Shown here: positions 2,731 through 46,306 of the stretch, piece after piece | Numbering within the stretch: position 1 is the stretch's first letter | Layout: the number at the start of each line of letters is the position of its first letter | Sequence record: MT682709.1 | DNA: 64,000 nucleotides | Strand: one strand, 5' to 3' | Source: Escherichia phage vB_EcoM_SP1 | The notes under the pieces: model-generated | Told to the model about the DNA's origin: nothing | Seen by the model: only the letters and a program-made list of their open reading frames with translations | The model's database searches: none | Made by a program: the position numbers and the translations under genes

Positions 2731-3364
2731 ACGCTTTTTTCATGGCCTCTGCGAGAGCCATATAGGCGTCATCGGCACTTGTATCGGCTTCCGCCGTCTG
2801 TGATTCGGTAATTTCCTTAGGAGTTACCCATGCATCTGGAGCACTTGGACCCCATACTGCATCAACACCTACAGTTAATTTGAATCCTTCGTTTACGATA
2901 CGATAACCTTTATTTGTGTCAGTCAATGAACCTAATCCACGAGAAGAAACTCCTGGAATCCATCCGGCACGAATATTAGCTGCTAATTTATCTCCAGGAC
3001 CGTGGTCACCTTCAATAACACGAGCTCGTCCGTATACGTCATTTCCTTTCCACCACATATCTTCTATAATGATAGCGGCTTGCATCGGGTCAACATTAGC
3101 GCGTGGAGGATGATTTAATTCTCCGAGAGCTTGTTTAGTTAAAACTTGCTCATTAATATAGTCTTTTACCGCTTTTTCTAATATGCGTTTTGGATAAAGA
3201 CGTTTATTTCTATTGACGACTTCTGCTTGCATGAATATTCCTTCGATGTATAAACCAGGTTTTAAACCTAAGTCTTTTCCATCGTGGGATTCAAGCATTG
3301 GCACACCATCAATAATTTCGCCAGGTTGACCCCAAGTTTCAATTAGTAATTGGGGTTCATTCAT
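2726..3364 (-). CDS. 21: prohead core protease gp21
   Basis: 212 aa, T4 gp21 size and position between 22 and 68. Confidence 0.9.
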   Translation of the reverse strand: MNEPQLLIETWGQPGEIIDGVPMLESHDGKDLGLKPGLYIEGIFMQAEVVNRNKRLYPKRILEKAVKDYINEQVLTKQALGELNHPPRANVDPMQAAIIIEDMWWKGNDVYGRARVIEGDHGPGDKLAANIRAGWIPGVSSRGLGSLTDTNKGYRIVNEGFKLTVGVDAVWGPSAPDAWVTPKEITESQTAEADTSADDAYMALAEAMKKAL

Positions 3365-31579: not shown

Positions 31580-32264
<685 letters not shown>

Positions 32265-40488: not shown

Positions 40489-40902
40489 ATGACTCGTATC
40501 AATTTAACACTTGTTTCTGAACTGACCGACCAACATCTTATGGCTGAGTATCGTGAATTACCACGCGTATTTGGTGCAGTCCGTAAACATGTTCAAAACG
40601 GTAAACGTGTAAAGGATTTTAAAATCTCTCCAACATTTATCTTAGGCACAGGTCACGTAACATTCTTTTACGACAAACTCGAATTTTTACGTTTACGTCA
40701 AATCGAGCTAATCGCTGAATGCTTGAAACGTGGTTTCAAAATCAAGGACACGACTGTCCAGGATATTTCCGACATCCCTGTCGAATTTCGTAATAATTAT
40801 GTCCCGTCCGAAGCGTCCATTGCGATAAGTCAAGCTCGCTTAGATGAAAAAATTGCTCAACGCCCTACTTGGTACAAATACTATGGTAAATCAATTTACT
40901 AA
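40489..40902 (+). CDS. denV: endonuclease V (pyrimidine dimer DNA glycosylase)
   Basis: 138 aa from [29 protein letters not shown], matches recalled T4 EndoV. Confidence 0.92.
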
Positions 40903-42187: not shown

Positions 42188-42427
42188 ATTCATAATTACT
42201 TAGAGAGGTAAAATGACTCGATGAAAAAATTTTAATGAAGCCACACTGGTATAAGTATTAAGGCAAAAATATTTACATTCAAATAACATGGGAACAACCT
42301 GGACCTCATGATTCTATGAGGGATTCCCGCCAACCTGTAATAAGGTCGAGCCCAAGTGCGGTAATGGGTAAATACAGAAATGGACAATTCATGTGCCATG
42401 GAATGGCCCAAATTTAGAGAGAATAAA

Positions 42428-42967
42428 ATGAGAACATTTTTAACTGGACCTTATCTATCCCTGATGAATGCTTTTACACACCATTCTGATGCTAGAGTAG
42501 AAGAAATTTGTAAAAACGATTATATCCCACCATTTGAAGACTTACTCAAACAGTATTGCACACTTCGACTAGATGGTGGACGTCAATCCGGTAAATCAAC
42601 TGCAGTAACTAATTTTGCCGCTAATTGGTTGTATGACGGTGGAACAGTTATTGTTCTTTCTAATACTTCAGCTTACGCTAAAATTTCTGCGGGCCACATT
42701 AAAAAAGAGTTTTCTCGTTATTCTAGCGATGATATTCGATTCCGCTTATTTACCGATTCTGTCCGTAGTTTTATCGGTAATAAAGGAAGCAAGTTCAGAG
42801 GTTTATCGCTTTCGCGGATTTTGTATATAATCGATGAGCCTGTTAAATCTCCTGATATGGATAAAATTTACGATATTCATATTGAAACTGTGCACCACTG
42901 TTGCAATAGTAAATGCTGCATTGGTGGTATTACTCGTCCACAGTTTTTCATAATCGGAATGCAATGA
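42428..42967 (+). CDS. P-loop NTPase with C-terminal Cys cluster
   Basis: Walker A GGRQSGKST, Walker B-like ILYIIDEP, HHCCNSKCC; ATG 42428 follows an RBS-like tract. Confidence 0.55.
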   Translation: MRTFLTGPYLSLMNAFTHHSDARVEEICKNDYIPPFEDLLKQYCTLRLDGGRQSGKSTAVTNFAANWLYDGGTVIVLSNTSAYAKISAGHIKKEFSRYSSDDIRFRLFTDSVRSFIGNKGSKFRGLSLSRILYIIDEPVKSPDMDKIYDIHIETVHHCCNSKCCIGGITRPQFFIIGMQ

Positions 42968-43301: not shown

Positions 43302-43664
43302 ATGAAAGCATATCAAATTCTTGAAGGCACGCATAAAGGTACTATTTATTTTGAAGATGGTATTCAAGCACGAATTATTGTCTCTAAAACTTTTAAAGAG
43401 GACTCTTTTGTAGACCCAGAAATTTTCTATGGTTTGCATGCCCGTGAAATTGAAATTGAAACACAACCTACAGTTAAAATTGAGGGTGGTCAACACCTGA
43501 ACGTAAACGTTCTGCGTCGTGAAACTCTGGAAGATGCAGTTAAGCATCCGGAAAAATATCCGCAGCTGACCATCCGTGTATCCGGTTATGCAGTTCGCTT
43601 TAACTCTCTGACTCCGGAACAGCAGCGCGACGTTATCGCTCGTACCTTTACTGAGAGTTTGTAA
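43302..43664 (+). CDS. GrcA/YfiD-like autonomous glycyl radical cofactor
   Basis: C-terminal 60 aa carry the RVSGYAVRF glycyl-radical motif and are essentially identical to recalled E. coli GrcA, with host-like codons. Confidence 0.8.
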
Positions 43665-43885
43665 TGGCAAAGATAATTATTGAAGGTTCTGAAGATGTGC
43701 TAAATGCTTTCGCCGAATGGTTTAGTAATTCAGGCGAACAGCAATTTAATGAAGCGTGGAACATGGGTGATATTAATGGAATTTATCCTACGACAGAAAT
43801 TTCTGTTCAAGGATATGGAATTCATGAGCCTATTCGTTTAGTTGAATATGATTTGGGAACAGGTGAGGAAGTAAAATATGATTGA
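43664..43885 (+). CDS. hypothetical small protein
   Basis: 73 aa, coupled start. Confidence 0.5.
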   Translation: MAKIIIEGSEDVLNAFAEWFSNSGEQQFNEAWNMGDINGIYPTTEISVQGYGIHEPIRLVEYDLGTGEEVKYD

Positions 43886-44144
43886 AGACATTAAAGGCTA
43901 TAAGCCACATACTGACGATAAAATCAGTAAAGTGAATGCTATCAAAGATGCTGAAGTTCGTTTAGGACTTATCTTTGATGCTTTATATGATGAATTCTGG
44001 GAAGCGCTAGATAATTGTGAAGACTGCGAATTCGCGAAGAATTATGCTGAAAGTCTCGATCAGTTAACTATTGCTAAAACGAAACTCAAAGAAGCCAGTA
44101 TGTGGGCTTGTCGTGCTGTGTTCCAACCAGAGGAAAAATATTAA
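43878..44144 (+). CDS. hypothetical small protein (Acb2/Vs.4 candidate position)
   Basis: 88 aa; vs-region small ORF. Confidence 0.45.
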
Positions 44145-44422
44145 TGGCCCAATTAAGCGCAGGGTTTGGTTATGAGTATTATACTGCCCCTCGTCGTGTA
44201 TCTGTTGCTCCTAAGAAAATTCAAAGTCTTGATGATTTCCAGGAAGTAATTCGTAACGCTTTCCAGGACTATGCGCGTTATCTTAAAGAAGATTCACAGG
44301 ACTGTCTCGAAGAAGATGAAATTGCTTACTATACGCAGCGTCTTGAACAGCTTAAAAACCTACATGAGGTCCGTGCAGAAGTTTCAAAGTCTATGAATAA
44401 ATTGATTAGATTTAAAGAATAA
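44144..44422 (+). CDS. hypothetical small protein (Acb2/Vs.4 candidate position)
   Basis: 92 aa from the ATG overlapping the upstream stop. Confidence 0.45.
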
Positions 44423-44424
44423 CT

Positions 44425-44454
44425 GTTTACTTTTCCTCTTGACTGTGGTATAAT
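44425..44454 (+). promoter_or_regulatory. early promoter (GTTTAC ... TGgTATAAT) upstream of regB
   Basis: 18-bp spacing. Confidence 0.6.
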
Positions 44455-44481
44455 TTTTCTATCAGTTAAGAGGAGAATAAC

Positions 44482-44943
44482 ATGACTATCAACACAGAAG
44501 TTTTTATCCGTCGAAATAAGCTCCGTCGTCACTTTGAGTCGGAGTTTCGTCAAATTAACAATGAGATTCGTGAGGCATCAAAAGCAGCAGGGGTCTCATC
44601 GTTTCATCTAAAATATTCTCAACATCTTCTTGATCGTGCAATTCAACGGGAGATTGATGAGACATATGTTTTTGAATTATTCCATAAAATAAAAGACCAT
44701 GTTTTAGAAGTTAATGAATTCCTAAGTATGCCTCCGCGTCCTGACATTAATGAGGATTTTATTGATGGGGTTGAATATCGTCCTGGGCGTTTAGAAATCA
44801 CCGATGGAAATCTTTGGCTTGGATTTACAGTTTGTAAACCTAACGAGAAGTTCAAAGACCCGTCACTTCAGTGCAGGATGGCAATTATCAACAGTCGTCG
44901 TTTACCGGGAAAGGCTTCTAAAGCAGTAATTAAAACTCAATGA
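44482..44943 (+). CDS. regB: site-specific endoribonuclease RegB
   Basis: 153 aa; matches recalled T4 RegB (MTINTEVFIRRNKLRRHFESEFRQINNE...). Confidence 0.8.
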   Translation: MTINTEVFIRRNKLRRHFESEFRQINNEIREASKAAGVSSFHLKYSQHLLDRAIQREIDETYVFELFHKIKDHVLEVNEFLSMPPRPDINEDFIDGVEYRPGRLEITDGNLWLGFTVCKPNEKFKDPSLQCRMAIINSRRLPGKASKAVIKTQ

Positions 44944-45496: not shown

Positions 45497-45830
45497 AATT
45501 TTGGTTTTATGTATAGGATTAATTTCATTTTCTGCGTTAGCAAATACATCATATACTGAAATTAGAGAGTATGTAAACCGTACTGCCGCGGATTATTGCG
45601 GGAAAAATAAAGCATGCCAAGCTGAATTTGCGCAGAAATTAATATATGCATATAAAGACGGAGAAAGAGATAAATCAAGCAGATACAAAAATGATACTTT
45701 ATTAAAACGATATGCTAAAAAGTGGAATACCTTAGAATGTTCAGTTGCGGAGGAGAAAGATAAAGCCGCTTGTCATTCAATGGTTGACCGTTTGGTAGAT
45801 TCTTATAATCGAGGATTGAGTACTAGATGA
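45489..45830 (+). CDS. small secreted protein
   Basis: 113 aa with N-terminal signal peptide and four Cys. Confidence 0.5.
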   Translation: MTKILVLCIGLISFSALANTSYTEIREYVNRTAADYCGKNKACQAEFAQKLIYAYKDGERDKSSRYKNDTLLKRYAKKWNTLECSVAEEKDKAACHSMVDRLVDSYNRGLSTR

Positions 45831-46306
45831 TTGTAAAATATATCAAGGGCGATATTGTCGCCCTATTTCTTCAAGGTAATATTATTGCGCATGGGTGCAA
45901 CTGCTTTCATACTATGGGTTCAGGTGTAGCAGGTCAATTAGCAAGGGCCTATCCTAAAATTTTAGAAATAGATAAAACCACTACTGAGTACGGTTCTCGT
46001 GATAAATTAGGTGATATGTCTATTGTTTTTAAACATAATCCTACAGGATTTGGTATATGCTATAACCTGTATACACAATACGAACCAGGTCCTAATCTTG
46101 ATTATGGTGCTTTAGTAAACTGCATGATAGAATTAAATCTACAGGCAGAAACCCTTTTGTTTAAACCAGTAATTTACATTCCACGCATAGGTTGTGGTAT
46201 TGCTGGCGGTGATTGGGATAAGGTTTCTAAATTAATCGACATGTTTACTCCTGATATTGATTTAATAGTGGTGGATTATGAAAGCACATTACCCGCATCC
46301 GTTTGA
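45827..46306 (+). CDS. macro-domain-like protein
   Basis: HGCNCFHTMGSGVAGQ and IPRIGCGIAGGDW resemble macro-domain ADP-ribose-binding loops. Confidence 0.5.
   Translation: MIVKYIKGDIVALFLQGNIIAHGCNCFHTMGSGVAGQLARAYPKILEIDKTTTEYGSRDKLGDMSIVFKHNPTGFGICYNLYTQYEPGPNLDYGALVNCMIELNLQAETLLFKPVIYIPRIGCGIAGGDWDKVSKLIDMFTPDIDLIVVDYESTLPASV

Follow-up and report, generated by a model that had tools for sequence, protein, structure and literature searches.

Predicted products of the vs.5–vs.4–vs.3 locus of Escherichia phage vB_EcoM_SP1: an Acb2 orthologue, a TadIV-1 orthologue and an acidic protein of a separate family

Three small open reading frames (ORFs) with coupled starts lie directly upstream of regB in Escherichia phage vB_EcoM_SP1 (MT682709.1), a T4-like phage of the genus Tequatrovirus. 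A preliminary description of the sequence proposed all three as candidate Acb2 (Vs.4)-type cyclic-nucleotide sponges and did not decide which of them is the orthologue. We analyzed the locus within a 64,000-nt stretch of the phage DNA (hereafter the window) and asked which of the three ORFs belong to the Acb2 family and what the others are. The locus is best read as T4 vs.5–vs.4–vs.3, in which the second ORF (ORF2) is Acb2, the third (ORF3) is TadIV-1, and the first (ORF1) belongs to a separate, acidic, non-sponge family; we place the probability of this reading at about 0.9. The finding is already known, since both identified proteins are near-identical to published and experimentally characterized T4 proteins. 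Current knowledge is unchanged.

Organization of the locus

The 1.8-kb stretch around the locus shows 98.5% identity with Escherichia phage vB_EcoM-CHD94UKE2, and hundreds of Tequatrovirus genomes also match it. The ORF coordinates, the junctions, and the Pfam matches of the flanking genes to Gly_radical and REGB_T4 (Table 1) agree with the preliminary description, which placed three coupled ORFs encoding 73, 88, and 92 aa between regB and a GrcA-like gene. The same description equated the interval with T4 vs.3–vs.5, and the T4 record indeed lists vs.5, vs.4, and vs.3 between vs.6 and regB, in the same order as in the window.

The vs.6 stop and the vs.5 start are joined as TAATG, vs.5 and vs.4 overlap by 8 nt (ATGATTGA), and the vs.4 stop and the vs.3 start again form TAATG. 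These junctions fit translational coupling of vs.5–vs.4–vs.3. The three genes form the 3' end of the vs.8-to-vs.3 gene block, and the three small proteins are best explained as products of coupled translation. A start of ORF3 at GTG 44102, giving 106 aa, was dropped in favor of ATG 44144, which fits the T4 annotation, the published 92-aa protein, and the TAATG coupling. The promoter-like site of regB lies within the 59-nt gap between vs.3 and regB and closes the coupled block. Autoregulation of RegB, a feature of T4 biology, would be possible via GGAG in its own ribosome-binding site. The regB ribosome-binding site in the window, GAGGAG (44470–44475), includes GGAG, the RegB cleavage target as annotated in the T4 record.

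The dN/dS values against a re-sequenced T4 genome were approximately 0.05 for vs.5, 0.05 for vs.4, and 0.025 for vs.3, and tblastn matched them in 988, 1239, and 663 phage records, respectively. The low dN/dS values and the matches in many phage records indicate that vs.5, vs.4, and vs.3 are real genes rather than chance ORFs, and the three genes are under purifying selection.

Table 1. Positions of the genes and the promoter-like site considered in this study, numbered from the first nucleotide of the window.
Feature	Position	Strand	Basis or remark
acb1 (T4 gene 57B homologue; putative 2H phosphodiesterase cleaving CBASS signals)	31809..32264	+	PF23474, 7T26, two HxT motifs
vs.6 (GrcA-like glycyl-radical cofactor gene)	43302..43664	+	Pfam Gly_radical 2.2e-18; 98% identity to T4 Vs.6
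vs.5 (ORF1; 73-aa acidic protein, PHROG 1986)	43664..43885	+	ATG start
vs.4 = acb2 (ORF2; 88 aa, predicted cyclic-dinucleotide sponge, anti-CBASS 2)	43878..44144	+	ATG start; 7UQ2, PF24729
vs.3 = tadIV-1 (ORF3; 92 aa, predicted N7-cADPR sponge, anti-type IV Thoeris)	44144..44422	+	T4 Vs.3, 9WIW; function from PMC13243611
regB promoter-like site	44426..44454	+	TTTACT, 17 nt, TATAAT, with TG; consensus match only; same sequence in T4
regB (endoribonuclease; downstream boundary gene)	44482..44943	+	Pfam REGB_T4 1.2e-68; 99% identity to T4 RegB

Assignment of ORF2 and ORF3

ORF2 aligned over its full length with the protein of PDB 7UQ2 ("Vs.4"; E = 9e-56), with 85 of the 88 residues identical, and matched Pfam PF24729 (Acb2_Tad1_hairpin) at 1.2e-19 and 70.6 bits (cut-off 27). 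The two proteins are equal in length, their genes have the same vs.5 and vs.3 flanks, and ORF2 differs from T4 Vs.4/Acb2 only by the conservative substitutions E13D, E14D, and G17S in helix 1; the effect of D13, D14, and S17 is assumed to be neutral. The residues of the cyclic-dinucleotide pocket, Y8, K23, and F82, are all present in the translation of ORF2, and mutation of Y8 or F82 in T4 Acb2 abolishes dinucleotide binding (PMC12657218). On these sequence grounds ORF2 is the Vs.4/Acb2 orthologue and the sole one among the three ORFs. Its 97% identity to the characterized and crystallized T4 protein argues that ORF2 would act as a hexameric sponge for the cyclic dinucleotides of CBASS, and the same identity predicts an interlocked hexamer with three cyclic dinucleotides bound. 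Such a hexamer would soak up 3',3'-cGAMP and other cyclic dinucleotides, as the hexamer of T4 Vs.4/Acb2 does, so that the CBASS effectors would stay inactive.

The Acb2 of phage PaMx33 (PDB 8IXZ/8H2J), a dual-pocket protein, belongs to the same family as ORF2. Equivalents of its Y11 and K26 are found in ORF2, where K23 aligns with K26, although the pairwise match is weak (E about 0.1), as expected at about 24% identity. The PaMx33-type trinucleotide pocket (R67 and T74) was not found in ORF2, which has D61 and T68, as does T4 Acb2; this is a marker of subtype and leaves the family membership unaffected. T4 Acb2, having D61 and T68, binds cyclic dinucleotides and does not bind cA3 or cAAG, and the D61R mutant does not regain cA3 binding (PMC10312549). 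Since ORF2 has D61 where PaMx33 Acb2 has R67, as in T4 Acb2, cyclic trinucleotides should not bind to ORF2.

In regards to ORF3, 91 of the 92 residues are identical to those of T4 Vs.3, and the protein matched the TadIV-1 of phage UPEC07 (PDB 9WIW) at E = 1.9e-37 and PHROG 2037 at 2e-40. T4 Vs.3, renamed TadIV-1 in 2026, is a two-helix protein that forms dimers; it sequesters N7-cADPR with a KD of about 216 nM and in this way stops the caspase-like effector of type IV Thoeris from acting. Deletion of vs.3 makes T4 sensitive to type IV Thoeris, and the type I Thoeris and CBASS signals tested were not bound (PMC13243611). Among the TadIV-1 homologues only the long form (about 90 aa), which has the N-terminal loop required for activity, is active and the short form (about 70 aa) is inactive, and T4 TadIV-1 needs R17, R18, and K24, residues implicated in N7-cADPR binding (PMC13243611). 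ORF3 is of the long form, at 92 aa; its N-terminal 23 residues are the same as in T4, R17, R18, and K24 are present in its translation, and its gene likewise lies directly upstream of the regB promoter. The only difference from T4 Vs.3 is V36I, and the effect of I36 is assumed to be neutral. In the crystallized UPEC07 protein, in contrast, the N-terminal loop is extended by an insertion of 9 residues, which ORF3 lacks. These alignments identify ORF3 as Vs.3/TadIV-1, a sponge that is unrelated to the Acb2 family and directed at another signal and another defense system. The 99% identity to T4 Vs.3 suggests that ORF3 would bind N7-cADPR and inhibit type IV Thoeris. In the proposed mechanism, the flexible N-terminal loop carrying R17, R18, and K24 in a dimer of two-helix protomers would capture N7-cADPR, and the caspase-like effector would thereby be kept inactive.

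The entry 9WIW carries the label "Endoribonuclease", which we rejected for ORF3 as an inherited mis-annotation; the UPEC07 protein is shown to be a homologue of T4 Vs.3, the TadIV-1 sponge (PMC13243611). GenBank records (e.g. KF925357 and MW630116) likewise call the Vs.3/TadIV-1 gene, and sometimes its neighbors, "endoribonuclease RegB domain-containing protein", and this mis-annotation is being passed on from record to record.

The proposal that the three ORFs all encode paralogous sponges of the Acb2 type draws on their being adjacent, coupled, and each shorter than 100 aa, and on two of them being signal sponges. The proposal is refuted at both the sequence and the fold level. Acb2_Tad1_hairpin matched ORF2 alone, and the PF24729 scan and blastp against ORF2 revealed no likeness of ORF3 to Acb2. 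A tblastn search of the window with T4 Vs.4 returned 43878–44141 only, so that ORF1 and ORF3 were without a match to T4 Vs.4/Acb2, and the best blastp E value among the three ORFs was 2. TadIV-1 is reported as structurally distinct from Acb2 (PMC13243611), and the structural model of ORF1, described below, has no Acb2-like neighbor. We consider a set of three Acb2 paralogues highly improbable. Of the preliminary proposal, the Acb2 assignment stands for ORF2; ORF3 is predicted to be a signal sponge as proposed, but one of the TadIV-1 kind, and for ORF1 the proposal is unsupported.

Vs.5, its family, and its possible role

ORF1 matched PHROG 1986 at 4.7e-43 and the Vs.5 of re-sequenced T4 with 97% identity, and its gene overlaps vs.4 by 8 nt, as in T4. 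The T4 reference record gives a 58-aa frameshifted product, in contrast to the 73 aa of ORF1. One base of vs.5 is missing in the T4 reference records X04567, AF158101, and NC_000866; the extra base is present in every re-sequenced T4 genome listed, and translation of MT984581 gave a 73-aa protein as in the window. The 58-aa Vs.5 of the T4 reference is probably a sequencing artifact.

Scans of Pfam, PADLOC, and NCBIfam gave no meaningful match to ORF1. Relatives were sought by a word-indexed search and by a profile search run exhaustively against 1.84 billion representatives, and only a handful of small ones were found (about seven small representatives by the profile search); those with names were all from T4-like phages. 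The Vs.5 family is restricted to Straboviridae and is separate from the known sponge families. Long FG-GAP-like repeat proteins that also appeared were discounted as motif-level chance, the common part being a short WF-N-G-Q-F motif; our reason for this reading is that the Vs.5 model has a helix at this motif. The invariant Vs.5 motif WFSNSGEQxF (43715–43750, residues 18–29) resembles the FG-GAP-like repeat unit AWFENNGSQSFTE and is the source of spurious multi-stretch matches.

The AlphaFold2 model of ORF1 (16 sequences) reached a pLDDT of 88.5 and consists of a helix at residues 10–33 and a beta-hairpin at residues 44–49 and 58–63. The comparison of the model with the PDB gave no structural neighbor, and its neighbors in BFVD were members of its own family only. 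Vs.5 has a net charge of -11.4 and a pI of 4.05, the members of its family range in net charge from -8 to -14, and conserved basic residues are absent from every column of the family alignment. The protein is rich in aromatic residues, among which F16, W19, F20, and Y62 are invariant.

These properties bear on whether Vs.5 could be a nucleotide-signal sponge belonging to a new family, which would make three sponges in a row. The position of this 73-aa protein immediately before the two sponges within their coupled block, its invariant aromatic residues, and its wide conservation in Straboviridae are compatible with such a role. However, the sponge pockets known so far are almost always positively charged, matching the phosphates of the ligand, with Acb4 as the exception (PMC12265669), and the family-wide acidity of Vs.5 and its want of a conserved basic residue thus argue, though indirectly, against a nucleotide-sponge role. 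Moreover, when Vs.3 to Vs.8 were each expressed singly against type IV Thoeris, inhibition was observed with Vs.3 only (PMC13243611), and Vs.5 is kept in genera without vs.4 and vs.3. Vs.5 resembles no sponge in either sequence or fold and has a net charge of -11, and we consider it unlikely to be a sponge. As a strongly acidic alpha/beta protein, Vs.5 would be poorly suited to binding phosphate-rich nucleotides; our best guess, which is conjecture, is that its partner may be a host or phage protein.

We compared the gene orders of the vs.8–regB block in three other genera. The order is vs.8, vs.7–vs.5 (one in-frame ORF), vs.6, vs.4, a short 76-aa ORF, and regB in Enterobacter phage PG7 (Karamvirus); vs.8, vs.7, vs.5, vs.4, and regB in LHE83 (Dhakavirus); and vs.8, vs.5, and regB in CGG4-1 (Gelderlandvirus). 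The block is modular among the phages compared, and Vs.5 is the small ORF between vs.8 and regB that was kept in all of these genera (3/3). These gene orders indicate that vs.5 is the most persistent small gene of the block and that the two sponges are accessory. The persistence of Vs.5 is compatible with a counter-defense or host-takeover factor and does not prove it. In PG7, the homologues of Vs.7 and Vs.5 form one uninterrupted 156-aa frame (2767–3237 of the PG7 piece examined), with vs.5 placed before vs.6, and BFVD includes Vs.5-like proteins of 100–163 aa. The fusion and these longer proteins hint that Vs.7 and Vs.5 are functionally connected, though the PG7 fusion could still be translated from the internal ATG.

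It is possible, and we propose it tentatively, that Vs.5 is a protein-binding anti-defense or host-takeover factor, either an acidic inhibitor or a DNA mimic, maybe acting with Vs.7. The very low pI, the two counter-defense genes in the same block, the retention of the gene in the other genera, and the in-frame fusion in PG7 are in line with this proposal. On the other hand, Vs.5 has no homology or fold match to known inhibitors, gene neighborhood is a weak argument in the crowded early regions of T4, and in PG7 the internal ATG may be used. The literature search for Vs.5 found no paper. The narrower idea that vs.5–vs.4–vs.3 is a three-gene counter-defense cassette, in which Vs.5 would represent a new family and, as an acidic protein that possibly mimics DNA, would bind a host defense protein, perhaps together with Vs.7, is speculative and somewhat doubtful.

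Acb1 and other genes of the window

The gene at 31809–32264 matched Pfam Acb1 (PF23474) over its full length at 2.6e-60 and PDB 7T26 at 4.1e-62. Like T4 gp57B (Acb1; PDB 7T26), the predicted protein has the full-length domain and both HxT motifs, H43-S-T and H112-I-T. Acb1 differs from the sponges in being a nuclease, and its gene lies 12 kb upstream of the vs cassette. The presence of Acb1 at 31.8 kb, and hence of two anti-CBASS mechanisms, had been claimed before and is upheld by these matches: judged by its gene content, the phage has Acb1 and Acb2, as does T4. The two are complementary because cyclic trinucleotides are not bound by Acb2 of the T4 type, and these signals would fall to the nuclease Acb1.

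The annotation of the phage should thus list two anti-CBASS proteins, Acb1 and Acb2, and one protein directed at type IV Thoeris, TadIV-1. In most database records these genes are entered as "hypothetical", or Vs.3 is mislabeled as a RegB-domain endoribonuclease. The Panoptes system is triggered by the Acb2 sponge (PMC12657218); carriage of Acb2 predicts that the phage would be sensitive to Panoptes. T4 sequestin (Y16Q), sought with its primer sequence, was not found in the window.

Several differences from T4 were observed near the locus. An intact denV lies at 40489–40899, between e and ipIII, and the T4 position of denV (between ipII and vs.8; 42213–42276) holds only a remnant, consisting of ATG ACT CGA TGA and, in a different frame, roughly the final 20 codons. 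The intact copy elsewhere and the remnant at the T4 position indicate that denV and the ipIII–ipII genes are rearranged relative to T4. In the vs.8 region (42316–42967), residues 1–35 of T4 Vs.8 match 42316–42420 and residues 26–219 match 42380–42964 in a different frame, which indicates that the N-terminus of vs.8 is frameshifted or differently started compared with T4. With the Vs.8 homologues of other genera, the alignment begins only at about residue 10–20 of the 195-aa ORF. Furthermore, the product of the macro-domain gene tk.4 (45827–46306; Pfam Macro 5.8e-08) shows 58% identity to T4 Tk.4, compared with 96–99% for the flanking vs, vs.1, and tk, which suggests a putative allele replacement in this ADP-ribose-related gene.
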